IMG/VR virus record: IMGVR_UViG_2563366886_000002
Location: 1 to 38,381 of that record
DNA from: a virus
Lineage: Duplodnaviria > Heunggongvirae > Uroviricota > Caudoviricetes
Strand: one strand, 5' to 3'
DNA: 38,381 bases
Position 1 is the stretch's first letter. Every line of letters starts with the position of its first letter. The notes under the pieces were generated by a model. That model saw nothing but the letters and a program-made list of their open reading frames with translations, was not told the DNA's origin and ran no database searches. The position numbers and the translations under genes were made by a program. Shown piece after piece: positions 2,862 to 37,400 of this stretch.

Positions 2862-3134
2862 ATGGCGCACAAAACCAAATTTCACAATTCTGATACCGAC
2901 CTTGCCATCCGGCATGAGCGGCGTTCACACGCATTTAAAACCGACTGGTACCAACACCCACCATGTACTGAAGAACAGGCCGAATGGCTGATTCATTCTT
3001 ACCGCAGGCGCGGGTTCGAGGTTAAGAAAGCTCTCAGTCTCGACTATCGGCACTGGATAATCTCTGTCAGGCTGCCTTATTCCGAACGCCCACCACGTCC
3101 GTCCCGCACTTTCCAGCAACGGATCTGGAGGTAA
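2862..3134 (+). CDS. hypothetical prophage protein (90 aa) immediately upstream of the DUF968 gene
   Basis: ORF MAHKTKFHNSDTDLAIRHERRSHAFKTDWYQHPPCTEEQAEWLIHSYRRRGFEVKKAL...; position matches the rem gene of the K-12 Qin prophage (order recalled as hokD-rem-ydfU, not verified). Confidence 0.45.
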   Translation: MAHKTKFHNSDTDLAIRHERRSHAFKTDWYQHPPCTEEQAEWLIHSYRRRGFEVKKALSLDYRHWIISVRLPYSERPPRPSRTFQQRIWR

Positions 3135-3135
3135 C

Positions 3136-4194
3136 GTGCGGGTATTACTTAGACCTGTTCTGGTGCCTGAGCTTGGGCTGGTGGTCCTTAAGCCGGGCCG
3201 TGAATCCATACAGATATTTCATAATCCTCGAGTGCTGGTGGAGCCGGAACCGAAAAGCATGTGCGGCCTGCCATCCGGAGTCGTCCCTGCCGTTCGCCAG
3301 CCGCTGGCGGAGGATAAATCATTACTGCCATTTTTCAGCAATGAGCGTGTGATTCGTGCTGCTGGCGGCGCTGGTGCACTGTCTGACTGGCTGTTGCGCC
3401 ATATTAAATCCTGCCAGTGGCCACACGGTGATTATCACCACAGTGAAACCGTCATTCACCGTTATGGTACCGGCGCAATGGTGTTGTGCTGGCACTGCGA
3501 CAACCAGTTGCGTGACCAGACCTCAGAATCACTTGAGCAACTTGCTCACCAAAACTTGTCAGCATGGATGATTGACGTCATCCGTCACGCAATCAGCGGT
3601 ACGCAGGAGAGGGAGTTATCGCTGGCCGAATTATCCTGGTGGGCGGTCTGCAATCAGGTGGCTGATGCGCTTCCGGAGTCTGTATTGTGTCGTTCACTGG
3701 GATTACCGGTGGAAAAAATCCGCTCCGTATACCGTGAGAGTGACATCGTACCGGGAGAACAGACTGCCACCAGCATACTGAAGCAGCGCACAAAAAATAT
3801 TGCGCTGCCACTTCACGTCCACCAGCAACAGCCCCCACTCCAGGAAAAGACGTTAGTAAGCATCGCCGTTGATCCGGAGTCTCCGGCTCAGTATCTCCAG
3901 CGCCAGAAACCACAACGGGAAGAGATGCCTGTATACACGCGCTGGGTAAAAACGCAGAAATGCATGACGTGCGGTAATCAGGCAGATGATCCGCATCACA
4001 TCATTGGTCATGGCCTGGGAGGTATGGGAACAAAGGCTGATGATTTGTTTGTTATTCCGCTGTGCCGTAAATGTCATAACGAACTGCACGCCGGGGTAAA
4101 AGATTTTGAAGAAAAACACGGCAGCCAGCTGTTGTTGCTGATTCGTTTTTTAATGCACGCGAGAAATTCGGGTGTCCTGAAGTGGAAAGCATGA
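3136..4194 (+). CDS. DUF968 family prophage protein (YdfU-like), Cys/His-rich C-terminus
   Basis: 352-aa ORF with GTG start; C-terminal CMTCGNQADDPHHIIGHGLGGMGTKADDLFVIPLCRKCHNELH motif; lies between hok and rusA/Q as in Qin-type prophages. Confidence 0.65.
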   Translation: MRVLLRPVLVPELGLVVLKPGRESIQIFHNPRVLVEPEPKSMCGLPSGVVPAVRQPLAEDKSLLPFFSNERVIRAAGGAGALSDWLLRHIKSCQWPHGDYHHSETVIHRYGTGAMVLCWHCDNQLRDQTSESLEQLAHQNLSAWMIDVIRHAISGTQERELSLAELSWWAVCNQVADALPESVLCRSLGLPVEKIRSVYRESDIVPGEQTATSILKQRTKNIALPLHVHQQQPPLQEKTLVSIAVDPESPAQYLQRQKPQREEMPVYTRWVKTQKCMTCGNQADDPHHIIGHGLGGMGTKADDLFVIPLCRKCHNELHAGVKDFEEKHGSQLLLLIRFLMHARNSGVLKWKA

Positions 4195-4575
4195 ATGACT
4201 GAACGCATAGAATTTGTTTTGCCTTACCCGCCGACGGTGAATACCTACTGGCGACGTCATGGCAATACGTATTTCATCTCGGAGGCCGGAAAGCGTTATC
4301 GCCGTGATGTGGTGCTAATTGTTCGCCAGCAGCGGCTGAAATTAAACCTGTCCGGAAGGCTGGCGATAAAGGTGATTGCAGAGCCACCGGATAAGCGTCG
4401 TCGCGACCTGGACAATATCCTGAAAGCACCGCTGGATGCGCTGACGCATGCGGGAGTGTTAATGGACGATGAGCAGTTTGATGAAATCAATATCGTTCGT
4501 GGTCAGCCAGTATCTGGTGGACGTCTGGGGGTGAAGATTTACCCCATAATGCATGAAGAGCAGGTCAAAAAATGA
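4195..4575 (+). CDS. rusA: RusA Holliday-junction resolvase
   Basis: 126-aa ORF MTERIEFVLPYPPTVNTYWRRHGNTYFISEAGKRYRRDV...DLDNILKAPLDALTHAGVLMDDEQ typical of RusA. Confidence 0.85.
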   Translation: MTERIEFVLPYPPTVNTYWRRHGNTYFISEAGKRYRRDVVLIVRQQRLKLNLSGRLAIKVIAEPPDKRRRDLDNILKAPLDALTHAGVLMDDEQFDEINIVRGQPVSGGRLGVKIYPIMHEEQVKK

Positions 4576-5393
4576 AACTGGAAGATTTGCCGAAATACTA
4601 CTCCCCAAAATCCCCTTGCCTGACCGATGCATCGGCCTCAACGTCAAAAGATGCGCTGAGTATCACTGATGTGATGGCCGCGCAGGGCATGACACAGAAT
4701 CGGGCTGAGATGGGGTTTTCTGCGTTCCTGGGGAAAATGGGCATCAGTATGAATGACAGGGCGCGGGCAACAGAATTACTGGCAGATTATGCACTCAGTC
4801 GGTGCGATCGTGTGGCGGCGTTGAGAAAACTTCCGGCAGAAATAAAACCGGTAGTGATGCGCATTATGGCTTCGTACGCTTTTGAGGATTATGCCCGCAG
4901 CGCAGCGAGTAAAAAGCAGTGCCCTTGTTGCTATGGGGAAAAATTTATTGAAAGCGTAGTTTTTACAAACAAGGTCCAGTATCCGGATGGTAAGCCGCCG
5001 GTATGGGCAAAGTGTACGAAAGGTGTGTATTCGTCTTACTGGGAAGAATGGGAAAAAGTCAGGGAGGTGGTAAAAGTTGCCTGTCCGGAGTGTGGCGGAA
5101 AGGGTGAGGTTTCCACCGCCTGTAAGGATTGCCGTGGGCGTGGTGTCGCCATTCATCGTGAAGAGTCGGTAAAACGTGGTATGCCTGTTATCAGAGACTG
5201 CCAGCGTTGTGGTGGTCGTGGCTATGAAAGACTACCATCAACGGAGGCATTTAATGCTATATGCGAGGTGACAAACCAGATAACACGCGCGTCATGGGAA
5301 AAAACAGTTAAGAAATTCTATGATGCGCTGGTGACCCGGTTTGATATTGAAGAAGCATGGGCTGAGCGGCAGTTAAAAAAGGTAACTAGGTAA
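4572..5393 (+). CDS. late-gene antitermination protein Q
   Basis: 273-aa ORF start-coupled to rusA (ATGA overlap); CxxC...CxxC zinc-binding region (CPECGGKGEVSTACKDCRGRG, CQRCGGRG); followed by a pR'/tR'-like promoter and terminator. Confidence 0.75.
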   Translation: MKLEDLPKYYSPKSPCLTDASASTSKDALSITDVMAAQGMTQNRAEMGFSAFLGKMGISMNDRARATELLADYALSRCDRVAALRKLPAEIKPVVMRIMASYAFEDYARSAASKKQCPCCYGEKFIESVVFTNKVQYPDGKPPVWAKCTKGVYSSYWEEWEKVREVVKVACPECGGKGEVSTACKDCRGRGVAIHREESVKRGMPVIRDCQRCGGRGYERLPSTEAFNAICEVTNQITRASWEKTVKKFYDALVTRFDIEEAWAERQLKKVTR

Positions 5394-5398
5394 CAAGG

Positions 5399-5426
5399 TT
5401 GATTTTTCCGGAATCTGTGGTAAATT
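5399..5426 (+). promoter_or_regulatory. late promoter pR'-like (Q-utilisation region)
   Basis: TTGATT -35 and TAAATT -10 with about 16 nt spacer directly after Q, followed by a terminator as in lambdoid pR'-tR'. Confidence 0.5.
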
Positions 5427-5474
5427 CGTCATAACAATGGGCTTTTTATGCCTGACGTTAGAAGAGTTTCTACA

Positions 5475-5498
5475 ACCCGCCGCCGAGCGGGTTTTTTA
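5475..5498 (+). terminator. tR'-like rho-independent terminator
   Basis: ACCCGC-CGCCGA-GCGGGT hairpin plus TTTTTTAT. Confidence 0.7.
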
Positions 5499-5536
5499 TT
5501 GCGGAATTAATTACGGACCGTTATCATTCTGCTCCC

Positions 5537-5612
5537 GGCCCTTTAGCTCAGTGGTGAGAGCGAGCGACTCATAATCGCCAGGTCGCTGGTTCAAATCCAG
5601 CAAGGGCCACCA
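5537..5612 (+). tRNA. tRNA with CAU anticodon (Ile2-lysidine type, ileX/ileZ-like; Met not excluded)
   Basis: Cloverleaf folded by eye: acceptor GGCCCTT/AAGGGCC, D arm GCTC..GAGC, anticodon loop CTCATAA, T arm GCTGG-TTCAAAT-CCAGC, encoded CCA; closely resembles E. coli ileX. Confidence 0.85.
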
Positions 5613-5712
5613 TCACAAACCGCCATTAGCTTATCAGGAAGAGCAGACGACACGATAACAGGGTTGTTGGTGCGGGGGCGGGTCCCCGATGGCGGTCCAT
5701 TATCGGTATTCA

Positions 5713-5786
5713 GCGTTGTTAGCTCAGCCGGACAGAGCAATTGCCTTCTAAGCAATCGGTCACTGGTTCGAATCCAGTACAGCGCG
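5713..5786 (+). tRNA. tRNA-Arg (anticodon UCU)
   Basis: Acceptor GCGTTGT/ACAGCGC (one GU pair), D arm GCTC..GAGC, anticodon stem ATTGC/GCAAT with loop CTTCTAA, T arm ACTGG-TTCGAAT-CCAGT; CCA not encoded. Confidence 0.8.
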
Positions 5787-5899
5787 CTATATTCATTCTT
5801 CCAGATTCCTTCCGGCAGAGCCTTATACTGAAATATACTTGGCTCAGGATCTTGTTGAAAATATTATATGTTTGTCAAAAATAAAAGTTCTGTTAAGTA

Positions 5900-6253
5900 T
5901 TGATTGAGTGTTTGTTATACCGTCTAATGGTTTTTTCAGCATTAAATATTTATCATTCATATGGTGTGGGTAGAGTGAATATTGATGAGGCGTCGGGGTG
6001 TTTCATCCTTAGGCAGCGTATTGATATAGTCAATGCAGCACGAGCAAAGGCCTTCAGCCGTTTGACAGTTTTGTTTTGTACTCCTGATCGTCTTTCGGGA
6101 AGAGACGTTATTATTCTGAATAGTGATGCTATACAGAGGGTTTGCGATGAGTTCATGGTTGCTAATTCAGAATTATTTGCTCTTGTTCAGGAGTACAACA
6201 GAATAGCCAGGACCTGTGGTATGGATGAACTTCGGATTACTCATCTGGGGTAG
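5900..6253 (+). CDS. hypothetical protein in AT-rich cargo locus (start uncertain; ATG at 5927 or a GTG further in)
   Basis: ORF ...VNIDEASGCFILRQRIDIVNAARAKAFSRLTVLFCTPDRLSGRDVIILNSDAIQRVCDEFMVANSELFALVQEYNRIARTCGMDELRITHLG; no convincing RBS. Confidence 0.3.
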   Translation: MIECLLYRLMVFSALNIYHSYGVGRVNIDEASGCFILRQRIDIVNAARAKAFSRLTVLFCTPDRLSGRDVIILNSDAIQRVCDEFMVANSELFALVQEYNRIARTCGMDELRITHLG

Positions 6254-6644
6254 ATACATATCTGGATTATCACTTGTTACGGTAAAAAGTGATTGCTTAC
6301 TGTTTTTGTGAATGGCATTGCAGCAGCCGGATAATGTCAGTGCTGGCTGACGGTGTGCTGGTGGCGGGTGTGGTGGTTATTGCTTTCCCGTTGCTGAAAA
6401 AGAAAACGCCAGACTGTTAGCCGGGTATCAGTTAGCGGGAGAAATTTTTAAATACTTCACAATTCAGGCGGTTGACTGTTGTCTGGTTTGCGGGGAGTTT
6501 GTTAAAAGAAACTGGCATGGTGAATCCCCCTGTGCGGAGGGGCAATCAGCGAGTAGGTATATGGGATAATCGCGGATTCAGGTGCTGGTACTGAATTCAC
6601 CGGGAGGCACCCGGCACCATGCAATGGCACATAGCGCCACTCTC

Positions 6645-6680
6645 CAGCCCCTCTCCGGAGGGGCTGTTTATATTGATTTT
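6645..6680 (+). terminator. rho-independent terminator (plus-strand oriented)
   Basis: CAGCCCCTC-TCCG-GAGGGGCTG 9-bp stem followed by TTTATATTGATTTT. Confidence 0.65.
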
Positions 6681-6700
6681 GTCAGATGTGAGTAAACTCC

Positions 6701-7036
6701 TTATGGACTTTGTTGTTTTAGTCCATAAGGACATATTTGCAGAATGCAACGGTTATTAAAGCATTCATTCAATACGTTATCTGTATTTGTAGGGCATTCC
6801 TGGCTGTTTTTGATTAAATTCCAGAATGTTTTATTGAATGGTACTACGTTGTAAATGGTTACAGGTAGCACTTTGTTATTGAGCATGATACCTGTGTGAG
6901 TCAGTGTAAATATACTTTCAGGAGGTAAGAAAGCATCCGATTGATACCAGATTATTAATTTTACTTTACTCCATATGACTGAAAAAGATATTCCGCATGA
7001 TGGCTGGATAACTGTATCAATCACAATCCACTTCAT
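6701..7036 (-). CDS. hypothetical Cys-containing protein (111 aa), AT-rich, opposite orientation to the late operon
   Basis: Reverse-strand [37 protein letters not shown]...[27 protein letters not shown] with AAGGAAA RBS; 260-bp AT-rich upstream region. Confidence 0.45.
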
Positions 7037-7296
7037 TTAGTTTCCTTGTTTATGCCTTGCTGGTGATGTTCTGAAAAGTATAAATGATATTTTTGAATGT
7101 AAACCATAGAGCAGAATTATTTTTCTGATGTTGTTTATTGTTTATTTAAATGCAGGGTGGTTTATATCTCGTCTTGTAGTTTATCCATGCATATCTGCTT
7201 GATAATCAAGTTTTTATTTAAGGTATGGTTTTGTGTTTTTTCTGTATTACATGTCAGGTATTTTAAAGAATTATTTTTCAGATGGTGGAAAGAACC

Positions 7297-7485
7297 ATGG
7301 CATTTAAACACTATGATGTTGTCAGGGCGGCGGCGCCGTCAGATCTTGCGGAAAAGCTGACACATAAACTGAAAGAGGGCTGGCAGCCGTTTGGTAGTCC
7401 GGTGGCCATAACCCCTTATACCCTGATGCAGGCGATTGCAGCAGAAGGTGATGTGGTGGTCAGTGGTGCAACTGAGCCGGAGTGA
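7297..7485 (+). CDS. DUF1737-like small protein preceding the lysis cassette
   Basis: MAFKHYDVVRAAAPSDLAEKLTHKLKEGWQPFGSPVAITPYTLMQAIAAEGDVVVSGATEPE; family call from memory of lambdoid lysis-cassette neighbours. Confidence 0.5.
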   Translation: MAFKHYDVVRAAAPSDLAEKLTHKLKEGWQPFGSPVAITPYTLMQAIAAEGDVVVSGATEPE

Positions 7486-7792
7486 TACTACGTCATCGTA
7501 CTGGCCCGGCATTCCAGGCCATAAAAGACGGTCTGGCAGTGGGACTAAATGCACTGACGCTGACGGATATTACCAAAAATGCAACGTATGGCGTTGAGAT
7601 AGAAAGTCTGGTGCTGGAGATAAATACACCGGCATCATCATAAAAAGTGAGCCAGTCAAATGGAAGGTATCGTTAAACTCACCGGTAGTGTCAGTGGATC
7701 GTCTGAGACGCTTGCATGAGTTATCAGAGCCATCAGTAGTTAACTGGTGGCTTTTTTATTGTTGTCAGCTTCCGGATAACGGGAGACGGGGT

Positions 7793-8008
7793 ATGGACCA
7801 GATGGAAAAAATCACAACAGGTGTGTCATACACCACGTCAGCGGTGGGAACGGGCTACTGGTTCCTGCAGTTGCTGGACAGGGTTTCCCCGTCTCAGTGG
7901 GCGGCAATAGGCGTGCTGGGGAGTCTGCTGTTTGGGCTGCTGACATATCTGACTAACCTGTATTTCAAAATCAGAGAGGACCGTCGTAAGGCGGCACGGG
8001 GAGAGTAA
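7793..8008 (+). CDS. S: class II holin, phage 21 S-like pinholin (71 aa)
   Basis: [71 protein letters not shown]; dual Met start (M1/M4), two TM segments, charged C-terminus; GGAG RBS. Confidence 0.8.
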
Positions 8009-9449: not shown

Positions 9450-9743
9450 TTATTGTGAGCAATACACACGCGCTTCCAGTGGAGTATAAATGCCTAAAGT
9501 AATAAAACCGAGAAATCCATTTACGAATGTTTGCTGGGTTTCTGTTTTAACAACATTTTCTGCGCCGCCACAAATTTTGGCTGCATCAACAGTTTTCTCC
9601 TGTCCAATTCCCGAAACGAAGAAATGATGGGTGATGGTTTCCTTTGGTGTTACTGCTGTCGGTTTGTTTCCAACAGTAAACGTCTGTTGAGCACATCCTG
9701 TAATAAGCATTGCCAGAGCGGCAGAAAACAACATTTTTTTCAT
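9450..9743 (-). CDS. bor: Bor lipoprotein (serum-resistance protein of lambdoid phages)
   Basis: MKKMLFSAALAMLITGCAQQTFTVGNKPTAVTPKETITHHFFVSGIGQEKTVDAAKICGGAENVVKTETQQTFVNGFLGFITLGIYTPLEARVYCSQ, near-identical to lambda Bor from memory. Confidence 0.9.
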   Translation of the reverse strand: MKKMLFSAALAMLITGCAQQTFTVGNKPTAVTPKETITHHFFVSGIGQEKTVDAAKICGGAENVVKTETQQTFVNGFLGFITLGIYTPLEARVYCSQ

Positions 9744-10126
9744 CTTATTATCCTGCATTGTTAAAAACGGCAGAATCCTATGTGACAACAATTAAACGAT
9801 AGTTAAATGGATTGATGAAAATTAAAACTATATAGGTGGATGCTCAGCCTATCGGAGGTAGTCAGGATTTGAATGTCAGTCTGTTGTCGGCATTCTGGCA
9901 ATGCAATTTGGATAAAGCGGGGATTAAAAAGATAGAGGCGAGCCGGTCAGGTAGAAATGAATCAGGCTCAAAGTGAAGCGGAAAAGGTCTGTGGCACAAG
10001 CTGATGCAGCCATAATTACAGCCTGATGATTTGTGGAATGAAACATGTTGAACCTCCTTAATTGATGTTATTCGAGTGATGAAGGCATTCTGTCCTTCTA
10101 TAGTGTCCAGTAAATCAAACAGGAAA

Positions 10127-34470: not shown

Positions 34471-37400
34471 ATGAGTGTGGCGACATTACGTGAACTGATT
34501 ATTAAAATCTCGGCAAATTCCCGGTCATTCCAGTCAGAGATCTCCCGGGCTTCGCGTATGGGGCAGGATTACTACCGTACCATGCAGAACGGAGGCCGGC
34601 AGTCCGCTGCTGCATCCCGTGAAATGCGGCGTGCACTGGCAGAAGTGACGGATCAGATAAATACAGCTAAATCTTCGGCACTAAACATGGCGGGGGCATT
34701 TGCCGGGGCTTTTGCTACCGGTCATCTTATTTCTCTCGCCGATGAGTGGAATTCAGTAAATGCCCGTCTGAAGCAGGCCTCACAGTCCAGTGATGATTTT
34801 CAGTCATCACAGCGTGAATTAATGGCGATCAGCCAGAGAACGGGGACGGCTTTTTCTGATAACGCCAGCCTTTTTGCCCGCTCTGCAGCTTCCATGCGGG
34901 AGTATGGTTACAGTTCTGAGGAGGTACTGAAAGTCACCGAGGCGATCTCCACGGGCCTGAAATTATCCGGTGCCAGTACAGCAGAAGCCAGTTCGGTGAT
35001 CACGCAGTTCAGTCAGGCTCTGGCGCAGGGAGTGCTGCGCGGTGAAGAGTTTAACTCGGTGAATGAGAACGGCGATCGTGTTATTCGTGCTCTGGCTGCG
35101 GGAATGGGAGTTGCCCGTAAGGATCTGAAGGCCATGGCGGATAACGGAAAGTTGACCGCCGATAAGGTTGTTCCTGCACTGATTAGTCAGCTTGGGGCAT
35201 TACGTGATGAATATGCGGCAATGCCTGATACGGTTTCATCCTCTGCAACCAAAGTTGAAAACGCCTTTATGGCCTGGGTTGGTGGTGCGAACGAGGCAAG
35301 CGGAGTGACGAAGACGCTCTCCGGTGTGCTGAATGGTCTTGCAGGCAATATTGACACCGTGGCAACCGCTGCCGGTGCTCTGGTTGCCGTCGGGGTAGCC
35401 CGATATTTTGGCAATATGGCGTCGTCTGCTGGATCTGCAACTGCCGGATTAATTACTGCAGCCAGAAACGAAGTGGCTCTTGCTGAAGCGCAACTTCGGG
35501 GGACACAGATAGCAACCGCCAGGGCGCGTGCGGCGGTTTATCGTGCGCAACAGGCGGTTGTTGCTGCTCGCGGTACCGAAAGGCAGGCCGCAGCAGAAGC
35601 GAAGCTGACAGCTGCCCAGGCGTCACTTACCCGTAATATTGCGGCCAGAACAGCGGCACAGACAACGCTGAATACTGTCACGTCAGTGGGGAGTCGTCTG
35701 TTAAGTGGTGCGCTGGGGTTGGTTGGTGGTGTGCCGGGACTCGTCATGCTGGGGGCGACGGCCTGGTACACGATGTATCAGAATCAGGAGCAGGCCAGAG
35801 AATCTGCACGCCAGTATGCCGCAACAATCGACGAAATTCGCCAGAAAACGTCGGCAATGTCGCTTCCTGAAGCGTCAGATAATGAGGAAAAGACGCGGCA
35901 GGCACTTGATGAGCAAAACAGGTTAATTGACGAGCAGAAAAGTAAGATTAAATCCTTACAGGAAAAAATTGCTGGCTATCAGTATGTGCTGGCAAACCCG
36001 GGCTGGACAACCGATAACGGTTTTATGATTAACCACATGACGTCGGTAAAAACTGTCACAGAAGGGCTTGCAGAAGCAACAAATCAACTGGCAGTTGAAC
36101 AGTCCCGTCTCACACAAATGCAGGGCAAAGCGCAATCCATTCAGGATGTGCTTGCCGGGCTGGAGGAGCGACGGGTGGCGTTGATCCGTCAACAGGCCGC
36201 GGAACAAAACAAAGCGTATCAGTCCCTGTTGATCATGAATGGGCAGCATACCGAGTTTAATCGCCTTCTCGGGCTCGGTAATGAATTACTTCAGCAGCGA
36301 CAGGGGCTGGTGAATGTACCGTTACGGCTACCACAGGCAACCCTGGATGATAAACAGCAGACTGCACTGAATAACAGCGAGCGCGAACTGGCTCTGTCCC
36401 GCCTGAAGGGGGAAGCCCGTGAGCGTGCCCGCCTGGGTTATGCTGCGGATGATCTCGGCTTTGTGGGAGAGGCGTATCAGACAGCCAGACAGAATTATAT
36501 CAATAACTCACTGGATGCCTGGCGAAATAACCAGGCAAATAAACCCAAAGCGCATAAAAAGACCGAAGCGGAAAAAACAGAAGATATTTATAAACGGCTG
36601 ATTAAACAGCAAAAAGAACAAATAGCACTGGCAGGGCAGAATACTGAACTGGCTAAGATGAAATATCAGGTCAGTCAGGGCGAATTATCAACCCTGTCAG
36701 AAGCGCAGAAAAAAACGCTTTTGCAGAATGCAGCACTCATCGACCAGAAAAAGATTCGTGAGCAGCTTGCTGCGTATGAAAGCAGCCTGGCGGACAGTAA
36801 TGCCAGTACCCGGGCATCTGACGAAGCGCAGTTACTGGGATATGGTGAAGGCTCACGGATGCGTGAACGACTCCAGGAAATGTGGAGTATCCGGCATGAG
36901 TTTGAGCAGAAAAATAACGAGCTGCTGAGACAGTATCAGGCCGGAGAAATTGAAGAAGCCCTGTGGAAACAGGAGAAAGAACTGAATAAAAAATATCTGG
37001 AAGAGCGTCTCAGCGATCAGCAGGATTATTATGCAAAGGCCGATGCTTTACGTAATAACTGGAATGCAGGACTCCAGGAGGGGCTGACCAACTGGGCAGA
37101 CAGTGCCACCGATTATGCTTCGCAGGCGGCAGATGCTGTCGTTTCCACTATGGACGGACTGGTATCAAATATTTCCGATGCACTGGCCGGAAATGTTGTG
37201 GACTGGAGAAACTGGGGGAGTTCAGTTCTCCGGGAAGTTTCAAAAATTCTGATGAATGCGGCCATTGTTAACGGACTGAAGTCACTCTCCGGTGCCGGAG
37301 GGTGGCTTGGTACAGTCGGCGGATGGATTTCGGGGGCGGTGGCAAACGCAAAAGGTGGTGTTTACACATCGGCAAATCTGAGTGCTTACAGTAACACTAT

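Follow-up and report, generated by a model that had tools for sequence, protein, structure and literature searches.

Identity and composition of the locus

A classic site of prophage accessory genes is the interval that separates Q, the late-gene activator, from the lysis genes. Here we asked what occupies it in the window, i.e. the whole 38,381-nucleotide stretch of viral DNA analysed, and whether its content stands in for the Shiga toxin genes that Stx phages carry there. An earlier note, made from the sequence alone, had described a 1.5-kb AT-rich segment at the stx-equivalent position and had proposed lysogenic-conversion or defence cargo of unknown function. An ORF scan, ARAGORN, Rfam and a terminator scan recovered all the features it had listed, and two were added: a DUF3927 gene, which had been overlooked, and a third, decayed tRNA beside the two already noted. 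The features are as follows.

4572-5393: Q, late-gene activator (PF03589)
5474-5493: tR'-like terminator (terminator scan)
5537-5612, plus strand: tRNA with CAT anticodon (ARAGORN, as Met; Rfam, 72.5 bits), left-hand backbone of the slot
5620-5696, plus strand: decayed tRNA-Arg(TCG), acceptor stem retained, middle scrambled
5713-5787, plus strand: tRNA-Arg(TCT) (ARAGORN, Rfam)
5975-6253, plus strand: conserved 92-codon gene with GTG start, the core of the ORF noted earlier at 5900-6253 (phrog_2873, E 3.8e-70)
6289-6420, plus strand: DUF3927/TciB-like 43-aa small protein (PF13064, 94.9 bits, E 2.8e-27; gathering score 25)
6486-6675, plus strand: STnc100-family structured small RNA (Rfam RF02076, 132.4 bits, model positions 1-206 of 206, E 4.2e-29)
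6698-6731, minus strand: candidate iraL terminator, a 12-bp hairpin overlapping the last iraL codons and stop, then UUUACU (fold of 6640-6740 on the minus strand, z-score -5.96)
6701-7036, minus strand: iraL, RssB anti-adaptor of the IraM/IraL/RssC family (NF007393, 162 bits; cut-off 121)
7037-7169, minus strand: iraL 5' UTR and promoter fragment, -100 to +33 of the CFT073 study (131/133 identical to CFT073)
7170-7281, no strand: rest of the AT-rich divergent spacer between iraL and the DUF1737 gene, GC about 0.29-0.33 (110/112 identical to CFT073)
7282-7643, plus strand: what is left of an esterase gene of the nanS-p type, forming the right-hand backbone of the slot (PF08410; phrog_143)

Comparison with the potB-island prophage of E. 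coli CFT073 (L006, positions 32263-34565) showed 97.9% identity over positions 5495-7800 of the window, with gene order kept. The two loci share orientation and neighbours (Q, tRNAs, DUF3927, STnc100, iraL, truncated DUF1737, holin), and they differ by two conservative substitutions in IraL and one base at the inferred iraL transcription start site (TSS), as well as by two features of CFT073, an IS200 that follows Q and a middle tRNA-Arg that is intact. The locus is a known lysogenic-conversion locus, already described from uropathogenic CFT073, and its novelty is low. Two of its components, iraL and STnc100, are already characterised; the DUF3927 and 92-codon genes are small and conserved, with no activity on record. 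The complete 1.5-kb arrangement was present in 863 of 5426 complete E. coli genomes. We consider it highly probable (about 85%) that the segment between Q and the lysis genes represents a mosaic accessory ('moron') region of a lambdoid prophage, essentially the same locus as in the CFT073 potB-island prophage, and that it consists of four separable units: iraL, STnc100, the DUF3927 gene and the 92-codon gene.

Base composition deviates from that of the flanking phage genes, a mark of morons, a concept that reportedly goes back to Hendrix and co-workers. GC content was 0.29-0.41 at 5800-6300 and 6700-7300, whereas Q and the lysis genes have about 0.46-0.55. The description of the whole 1.5 kb as AT-rich thus held for both flanks but not for the centre (6200-6700, DUF3927 to STnc100), where GC was 0.47-0.53. 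That the genes are accessory cargo and not phage backbone was borne out by PhiR12_2, in which Q, STnc100, the esterase gene and the holin gene follow one another without any cargo. Comparison of the slot across related prophages, a check that the earlier note had proposed, showed that the cargo differs between phages: stxAB in some, tciA-tciB in another, none in PhiR12_2. As with the lambda bor and lom morons, extra genes of deviant composition separate backbone genes that adjoin each other in PhiR12_2, a relative; the extra genes are bounded by a terminator, and one of them, iraL, probably has its own promoter and would be active in the lysogen. Unlike those morons, the present locus has two independent insertion points on either side of a conserved RNA element, and the promoter of its plus-strand unit is only a candidate.

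Relation to the stx slot

We then considered how far the locus corresponds to the position of stxAB. Phage 2851 (Stx2c), P13374 (Stx2a) and an Stx1 phage all carry, in this order, Q, tRNAs, stxAB, STnc100, DUF1737/esterase gene and holin gene; STnc100 immediately follows the B-subunit gene (stx2B or stx1B) and precedes the esterase gene. Relative to 2851 and P13374, order and orientation are the same here, including an iraM-like gene between STnc100 and the DUF1737 gene in 2851; the cargo is stx2AB in those phages but the 92-codon and DUF3927 genes here, and the Q type and lysis cassette also differ. No ORF for an A or B subunit was found at 5790-7296, where family scans gave DUF3927 and IraM only, in agreement with the statement that no stx-like ORF is present.

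The edges of the replaced stretch were defined by alignment. Homology to the tRNA cluster of Stx phages stops at about 5802, just after tRNA-Arg(TCT). Phage 2851 is again homologous from 6457 on, 46 nt beyond the stop codon of stx2cB, and remains so through STnc100, the iraM-like gene (whose protein shares 73.6% amino-acid identity with IraL here) and DUF1737. The assignment to an stx-equivalent slot was therefore sound as to the Q-to-lysis position but too broad in extent, as only about 5803-6456 replaces stxAB. By this alignment, the 92-codon and DUF3927 genes occupy the exact place of stxAB, while the right-hand part (STnc100, iraM-like gene, DUF1737) coexists with stx and is no substitute for it. 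The true stx-equivalent insert is about 650 bp; STnc100 and the iraM-like gene belong to a shared backbone that is also found behind stx2c. In non-Stx lambdoid prophages, the 'stx slot' holds regulators of host physiology. Current understanding is unchanged by these findings.

iraL and its promoter

The reverse-strand, Cys-containing gene of 111 aa (6701-7036) proved intact, with four invariant C-terminal cysteines. Profile and structure searches found homologues for both ORFs that the earlier note had listed, IraL in this case and phrog_2873 in that of the 92-codon gene. Besides NF007393, the 111-aa protein matched phrog_4407 (E 8.4e-73) and PDB 8twd (IraM; E 8.7e-32); PF11183, listed for IraM clusters in precomputed tables, gave no match in current Pfam-A even at E ≤ 10. 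Compared with CFT073 C_RS06710 (c1429), which has been identified as iraL (PMC12890032), 109 of 111 amino acids and 333 of 336 nucleotides were identical, and both substitutions (V25I and I98T) are conservative. The IraL subtype is defined by at least 95% identity to CFT073 iraL (PMC4045071), and identity to the commonest 107-aa IraM cluster (P0009) was 64%. On these sequence grounds, the gene is of the IraL subtype and not the IraM subtype. For the iraL coding sequence, the best match was at least 95% identical in 1417 matching records, about one quarter of complete E. coli genomes.

IraL of CFT073 is an anti-adaptor of RssB, stabilising RpoS in log phase (Hryckowian et al. 2014; PMC4045071). 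In that strain, a log-phase TSS was mapped by 5' RACE and iraL was found to affect both RpoS level and half-life; the protein binds RssB's N-terminal domain and is active in K-12 from its native promoter (PMC4045071). By analogy with this 98%-identical protein, IraL here would function as an anti-adaptor of RssB and may raise RpoS in growing cells. 'Unknown function', as the cargo had been described, is thus wrong for the 111-aa gene, and equally for the structured stretch, which is STnc100.

The iraL promoter fragment, defined as -100 to +33 in the CFT073 study, is at least 96% identical among iraL strains (PMC4045071). A candidate -10 element, TATACT (7082-7077), and a Shine-Dalgarno sequence, AAGGAAA, were both conserved in phage 2851. 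The TSS probably lies at about 7069-7070, and the base at 7070 differs from that in CFT073 (A vs G). From this promoter in the AT-rich spacer, iraL would be transcribed against the late operon during lysogeny, and transcription would probably end at the hairpin at 6698-6731.

K-12 IraM (b1160; PDB 8twd), the Mg2+-starvation anti-adaptor, is of the same family (NF007393): the solved chain can be aligned with the N-terminal 78 residues, and the four C-terminal cysteines are common to both. However, the region upstream of K-12 iraM is unrelated, and the gene adjoins e14 and not a Q-lysis slot. The literature also separates the two anti-adaptors by the conditions that induce them and by their binding to RssB: to both of its domains for IraM, only to the N-terminal one for IraL. 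Synteny of K-12 iraM with the present locus through ycgX was considered and rejected, as ycgX is DUF1398 and not DUF1737 and the iraM upstream region is unrelated.

Expression of the plus-strand genes

In lambdoid phages, Q-modified RNA polymerase starting at pR' passes terminators. On induction, pR' transcription with Q would continue past tR', over the tRNAs and the two small genes and beyond the STnc100 terminator; going by general knowledge of lambdoid Q, the polymerase would then cross iraL in antisense and enter the lysis genes. A consensus promoter scan found six sites, compared with 5.7 expected in shuffled sequence; because this is not above chance, we claim no promoter for the plus-strand genes.

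One alternative is that the 92-codon gene, the DUF3927 gene and STnc100 have no promoter of their own and are expressed essentially only from the Q-antiterminated pR' transcript on induction, like stx2, with STnc100 as a 3'-UTR processing product. This alternative is a real possibility, although we lean against it. The genes take the place of stx2AB and are on the strand of the late operon, their promoter-like matches are at chance level, and in Sakai the Hfq-bound EcOnc27 segment begins at +64 after stx2B whereas the Rfam 5' end of STnc100 is at +75, an upstream extension of 11 nt that is compatible with a longer precursor. However, in EDL933 culture, RNA-seq reads were reported for all 11 STnc100 copies, one of which was confirmed by Northern blotting (PMC5331693), and an RpoD ChIP-exo signal has been reported at STnc100 copies of Salmonella LT2. 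Two sigma-70-like sites (5839-5867 and 5855-5882) also lie just upstream of the 92-codon gene, although in CFT073 one of them has lost a base of its -35 element (position 5839). From general knowledge, pR' transcripts are expected to end at tR' (5474-5493) in a lysogen, which likewise speaks against expression from the late transcript alone.

The STnc100 RNA

The structured stretch at 6480-6640 and its strong terminator, as noted earlier, correspond to Rfam STnc100 at 6486-6675, the match far exceeding the gathering score of 47 bits. The terminator has a 9-bp stem with seven GC pairs (6645-6666), followed by a T-tract to 6672, and was kept in 11 of 13 aligned copies. Among the 38 predicted pairs of the fold, 13 showed changes on both sides across the 13 copies, which are related, so that fewer events than cells are represented. 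The closing helix and two hairpins were almost invariant in these copies, and all 190 nucleotides were identical to CFT073. The multi-helix RNA of about 190 nt would, with its intrinsic terminator, close the upstream plus-strand transcription unit.

The closest characterised relatives are EcOnc27/sRNA103, a member of the same RNA family downstream of stx2B, and the related PasD1 and PasD2 of EPEC. The likeness comprises a full-length model match, the same multi-helix core and terminator, and a position between cargo and the esterase/lysis genes. EcOnc27, whose coordinates overlap the 5' third of STnc100, is Hfq-bound (Hfq-CRAC) and was confirmed by Northern blotting (PMC7873438), and RIL-seq partners have been reported for PasD. 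By analogy with these RNAs, STnc100 here may be an Hfq-associated regulatory RNA. Here, however, it is preceded by the DUF3927 gene and not stxB, and it faces iraL and not the antisense sRNA AsxR. The middle hairpin and 5' tail also diverge in sequence, so the seed or targets may differ; targets of the family are poorly defined in the literature.

Mosaic breakpoints were located at 6457 and at about 6623-6631, i.e. at both edges of the STnc100 core, making these edges useful for comparing prophage cargo. Copies of the element share a near-invariant core between unrelated flanks, and because this core coincides with the breakpoints, a probable role for it is that of a homology patch in cargo swapping. 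STnc100 could be mainly a cis-acting DNA/RNA module, combining an insulating terminator with a patch of recombination homology, and not a trans-acting regulator. Such a module would fit the junctions at its edges, the weak support for proposed targets, and its repetition: a genome may hold as many as 12 matching places, and tandem arrays occur in 640R1 (two copies) and in strain 2014C-3338, where four of five copies are in tandem. Nevertheless, we regard this possibility as rather unlikely: the covariation in 13 pairs keeps an RNA structure beyond the terminator, family members show Hfq binding and Northern detection, and the related PasD has RIL-seq partners. Moreover, cis and trans roles are not exclusive. 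The invariance of the STnc100 core and its tandem arrays might also reflect a function beyond that of an Hfq sRNA, for which an RNA domain that binds a protein or ligand, or a module dedicated to recombination, would be examples.

Two other features of this stretch were set aside. TTGTTAAAA (6499-6507), which is near-invariant and lies upstream of the closing helix, might be read as an extended -10 element; this was not preferred because EcOnc27 of Sakai starts, in Hfq-CRAC, upstream of the equivalent sequence, placing TTGTTAAAA within the RNA. A pseudo-CDS annotated by PGAP antisense to STnc100 (about 6505-6630) is an annotation artefact over structured RNA.

The two small genes in the place of stxAB

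The DUF3927 protein contains a hydrophobic stretch, SVLADGVLVAGVVVIAFPLL, followed by KKK, and probably has this one stretch as a transmembrane segment. PGAP annotates the gene in strain 64 and CFT073 as WP_000562553.1. PHROGs assigns it to phrog_1470, 'TciB-like inhibition of cell division or resistance to colicin', which is an annotation label only; a literature search on DUF3927/TciB found no relevant paper. In JLK-2012, the tciA-tciB module occupies the same slot, and a 311-nt stretch (6321-6631 of the window), covering the C-terminal part of DUF3927/TciB and the STnc100 core, is 92.6% identical. JLK-2012 differs in having the TerB-like tciA in place of the 92-codon gene, in being without iraL, and in having a full-length esterase gene.

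The 92-aa protein is predicted to be a helical hairpin under purifying selection; the AF2 model is a two-helix hairpin with a pLDDT of 86.3. Scans against Pfam, NCBIfam and PADLOC assigned it to no family, and a profile search of PDB sequences returned only coiled coils at E of about 0.45. Foldseek searches with the model against PDB and BFVD gave nothing at E ≤ 0.001, only generic helical hairpins (EmrA, prefoldin, designed helical bundles). An exhaustive HMMER search over 1.84 billion representatives recovered just 19 proteins, none with an informative Pfam domain for the family. At all five loci examined, the gene lay within the antiterminator-to-lysis region of Escherichia or Salmonella lambdoid prophages; the Salmonella homologue (43% identity) is also between Q and the holin gene. 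It is conceivable, but improbable in our judgement, that the 92-aa protein is a new lysogenic-conversion or host-takeover effector, maybe acting with the adjacent DUF3927 peptide, where relatives carry Shiga toxin.

Still less likely is the defence cargo suggested by the earlier note, in which the locus would be an anti-phage defence or superinfection-exclusion island with the 92-aa protein and the DUF3927 peptide working together in exclusion or abortive infection. Their genes are neighbours on one strand in a slot generally known for accessory genes, and DUF3927 is a small membrane peptide with the TciB-like label. Yet a scan of the 92/117-aa, DUF3927 and IraL proteins against PADLOC-DB 2.0 gave nothing at E ≤ 0.1, and the TciB label is an annotation for which the literature search found no paper. 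Nor is the pair obligatory: in JLK-2012, DUF3927 accompanies tciA without the 92-codon gene, and EC581 has a 92-aa homologue with no DUF3927 annotated beside it.

The 117-codon ORF first noted at 5900-6253 is a real gene, but its conserved start is the GTG at 5975 (92 aa) and not the TTG at 5900. The EC581 homologue has an in-frame stop 10 codons upstream of the corresponding GTG, and PGAP annotates it from the equivalent GTG as WP_001017777.1. A chance ORF in AT-rich, non-coding spacer DNA is scarcely credible: RefSeq/PGAP does not annotate the gene in strain 64 or CFT073 (two near-identical genomes checked), it lacks a Pfam or NCBIfam match, and its start is non-ATG with a weak or absent Shine-Dalgarno sequence, but dN/dS was 0.26-0.29 over the last 92 codons against two homologues (L007 and L008, about 70% nucleotide identity), third codon positions carried about twice the differences of first or second positions, the 92 codons are free of indels in three lineages, against 4-13 stops in the other two frames, homologues of 92-95 aa reach down to 34-44% identity, Salmonella included, and the AF2 model is confident. 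RefSeq thus misses a conserved gene of this slot in the reference UPEC strain CFT073.

Flanks of the slot

On the left, the tRNA at 5537-5612 is identical in CFT073 (76/76), where PGAP labels the copy Ile, and in Stx phages 2851 and P13374. The decayed tRNA-Arg at about 5620-5696 received no ARAGORN or Rfam call in the window; its CFT073 counterpart is called tRNA-Arg(tcg), and the two align at 74% identity with differences concentrated at 5644-5678.

On the right, the esterase remnant consists of a 67-aa DUF1737 N-terminus (7282-7485) and a 53-aa C-terminal ORF (7482-7643), which match positions 1-58 and 582-632 of the 634 positions of phrog_143. About 1.5 kb is absent relative to yjhS of JLK-2012, and PGAP labels the gene 'incomplete'. 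The DUF1737 remnant also gave a marginal match to AbiEii (E 0.0097, PADLOC-DB 2.0).

A previously described locus

The segment at 5790-7296 is near-identical to an already studied locus, and its main components, iraL and the STnc100 RNA, have both been described previously. By megablast, the whole 1507-bp segment was found in 863 of 5426 complete E. coli genomes at 95-99.5% identity, and the best annotated match carries a 'DUF3927 family protein' and an 'anti-adapter protein IraM'. The window, a lambdoid prophage, has the gene order of the potB-island prophage of uropathogenic strain CFT073: antiterminator, tRNAs, DUF3927, IraM-family gene on the opposite strand, truncated DUF1737, holin, YdfR, and lysozyme. 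Alignment of window 5495-7800 with that prophage gave 97.9% identity, with matches at 190/190 nt of STnc100, 278/279 nt of a 92-codon gene, 333/336 nt of the iraL coding sequence, and 131/133 nt upstream of iraL. The elements listed in the earlier note were all found at their coordinates, and its description of the cargo as unknown proved largely wrong, given that the chief constituents are iraL and STnc100. Both flanks of the segment are AT-rich (GC 0.29-0.41), and its centre, 6200-6700, has a GC of 0.47-0.53.

Features of the interval between Q and the lysis genes
4572-5393, Q antiterminator (PF03589, DnaJ-type zinc finger)
5474-5493, tR'-like terminator (terminator scan)
5537-5612, tRNA, CAT anticodon
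5713-5787, tRNA Arg-TCT
5790-7296, segment in question
7282-7485, DUF1737 ORF, 67 aa
Downstream of the DUF1737 ORF, P21-type holin, DUF1327/YdfR protein, lysozyme-like ORF, and Rz-like ORF

The reverse-strand gene

The 111-aa protein encoded at 6701-7036 (-) scored 162 bits against the NCBIfam IraM model (cut-off 121) and was identical at 109 of 111 positions to C_RS06710 (c1429) of CFT073, which is iraL (PMC12890032). On sequence grounds, the gene is iraL. Its product shares 64% identity with the most frequent cluster of 107-aa IraM proteins, aligns over the N-terminal 78 residues with the solved IraM chain 8twd (E 8.7e-32), and has four C-terminal cysteines that are invariant in nine family representatives. 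The best match to the coding sequence was at least 95% identical in 1417 E. coli records and just 60-80% identical in 3331, a range that includes the genes annotated iraM.

Hryckowian et al. located iraL on the potB island, mapped its transcription start by 5' RACE in log-phase cells, and found that RpoS level and stability rise in log phase with iraL, which is active in K-12 if moved with a fragment running from -100 to the gene end (PMC4045071). In later work, expression was higher in a fur mutant and upon a shift to 37 °C. Upstream of the gene, a TATACT hexamer lies at 7082-7077 (-), reading TATAAT in Stx2c phage 2851, and the start site would fall at about 7069-7070, ~33-34 nt upstream of the ATG, fitting the '+33' of the paper. 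A 12-bp hairpin (6698-6731) overlapping the stop codon and followed by UUUACU is probably the iraL terminator.

STnc100

The structured stretch described in the earlier note is STnc100, with a full-length Rfam match at 6486-6675 (132.4 bits, gathering score 47), and the 9-bp GC-rich terminator at 6645-6666 belongs to it. When thirteen copies from the window, several phages, and two E. coli genomes were aligned, the long-range closing helix and two hairpins were almost invariant, the third hairpin was variable, and 13 of 38 predicted pairs showed compensatory changes.

This family corresponds to the Hfq-bound sRNA EcOnc27/sRNA103, encoded immediately downstream of stx2B (PMC7873438, PMC12711010, PMC12370729), and a 2026 preprint links it to the EPEC sRNAs PasD1/PasD2. 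Counted downstream from stx2B in Sakai, STnc100 occupies +75 to +280 and the segment recovered by Hfq-CRAC +64 to +143, an overlap indicating that Hfq contacts the 5' third of the RNA. RNA-seq of cultured EDL933 gave reads for all 11 of its copies, and a Northern blot confirmed one.

Tandem arrays were observed elsewhere. E. coli 2014C-3338 (NZ_CP027452.1; 2667-2879 and 4639-5618) has five copies, of which four are arranged head-to-tail with a period of ~260-270 nt, directly 3' of a homologue of the 92-codon gene and ahead of an esterase gene; phage vB_EcoS-640R1 has two (3061-3254 and 3530-3718). In RefSeq, the strand opposite STnc100 (window 6502-6630, -) bears a pseudogene labelled as a partial 'hypothetical protein' in the near-identical genomes, and similar ORFs are annotated in Stx phage records; most probably, this is an artefact of annotating a structured RNA.

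Two small genes

Besides iraL and STnc100, the locus encodes a DUF3927 peptide and a poorly annotated 92-aa protein modelled as a helical hairpin. The latter corresponds to ORF 5900-6253, which had no Pfam or NCBIfam match and is absent from the PGAP annotation of CFT073 and of the near-identical strain 64. It matches phrog_2873 (E 3.8e-70), and 92-95-aa homologues occur in Escherichia and Salmonella down to 34-44% identity, with a Salmonella homologue likewise lying between Q and holin. In pairwise comparisons with two homologues (~70% nucleotide identity), the 92-codon core (5975-6253, +) had a dN/dS of 0.26-0.29, about twice as many differences at third positions as at first or second, and no indels, and the other two frames contained 4-13 stops. 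Judged by its sequence conservation, this is a genuine gene despite the missing annotation. The frame upstream of GTG 5975 is broken in 2014C-3338 and stopped in strain EC581, so the conserved product is 92 aa; the EC581 homologue starts at the corresponding GTG in the PGAP annotation.

AlphaFold2 (11-sequence alignment) gave a confident two-helix hairpin (pLDDT 86.3). A short pair of strands and the best-conserved motif, FSRLTVLFCTPDRLSG, lie in the loop joining the helices; fold and profile searches returned generic helical hairpins only. A tiny out-of-frame ORF (5961-5978, ATGGTGTGGGTAGAGTGA) overlaps the GTG start at its end, within the sequence GTGA, which could reflect translational coupling or coincidence.

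The DUF3927 peptide (6289-6420, +; 43 aa, GTG start, 94.9 bits) has a single hydrophobic stretch with KKK after it. Its family is designated 'TciB-like' in PHROGs, and a literature search on DUF3927 found no study of the family. The suggestion of defence cargo gained no support, as no cargo protein matched a PADLOC defence model.

Comparison with Stx and other phages

Synteny with Stx phages bore out the proposed stx-equivalent position. Phage 2851 has Q, three tRNAs, stx2A/B, STnc100, an iraM-like gene on the opposite strand, DUF1737, further genes, and holin. In Stx2a phage P13374 and an Stx1 phage, stxAB and STnc100 are followed by an esterase gene, with the antisense sRNA AsxR between STnc100 and esterase in P13374. 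PhiR12_2 has Q, STnc100, esterase, and holin with no insert. The iraM-like protein of phage 2851 is 73.6% identical to the window IraL over 110 aligned aa, and its gene sits between stx2cB/STnc100 and the DUF1737 gene. This intact gene (4501-4830, NC_049943.1) is unannotated in the RefSeq record, as are its counterparts in most other Stx2/Stx2c phage records listed.

The window and phage 2851 are homologous up to 5802, past the tRNAs, and again from 6457, 46 nt past the stx2cB stop, to 7454. Thus only ~5803-6456 is positionally equivalent to stxAB, and a second module, made up of STnc100, iraL, and DUF1737, can be present alongside stx. Only one half is shared by each of several other phages (mEp460_ev081, 5394-6623 and divergent beyond; 640R1, 6457-7800; JLK-2012, 6321-6631), placing junctions at the borders of the conserved core of STnc100. 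These junction positions suggest that the core acts as a patch of homology through which cargo is exchanged.

Proposed working

In the lysogen, iraL would use a promoter of its own and be transcribed counter to the late operon, and IraL would sequester RssB, stabilising RpoS in growing cells, a lysogenic-conversion function demonstrated for the CFT073 allele (PMC4045071). STnc100, probably an Hfq-associated regulatory RNA, terminates the plus-strand unit. In a consensus promoter scan, candidate sigma-70 sites at 5839-5882 were no more than expected by chance. Expression of stx2 depends on Q-mediated read-through, and STnc100 and the two small genes may be expressed in the same way or from a local promoter. 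Upon induction, from general knowledge of lambdoid late transcription, Q-modified polymerase would read through the segment, antisense across iraL, and into the lysis genes.

Flanking observations

Q is of a 273-aa type with a DnaJ-like CXXCXGXG zinc-finger region, and may be the 'Fels-1 prophage chaperone' of Salmonella annotations, reported as the commonest STnc100 neighbour. Between the two called tRNAs lies a decayed tRNA-Arg(TCG) (5620-5696; no call by ARAGORN or Rfam in the window), with an intact acceptor stem, a scrambled D/anticodon/variable region, and 74% identity to the intact CFT073 copy. The DUF1737 ORF matches the N-terminus, and the 53-aa ORF after it the C-terminus, of a nanS-p-type esterase family of 634 aa (phrog_143; the two ORFs together cover 7282-7643), with ~1.5 kb deleted relative to phage JLK-2012; CFT073 has the same deletion. 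A hok/sok type I toxin-antitoxin locus lies at 2370-2541 (Rfam sok, 106.7 bits), where hokD is annotated at the equivalent position in strain 64 and CFT073. Just past the Rz-like ORF, a 113-aa ORF (9450-9791, -) with a lipoprotein-like signal sequence looks like a Bor moron; 640R1 has Bor annotated at the same place.
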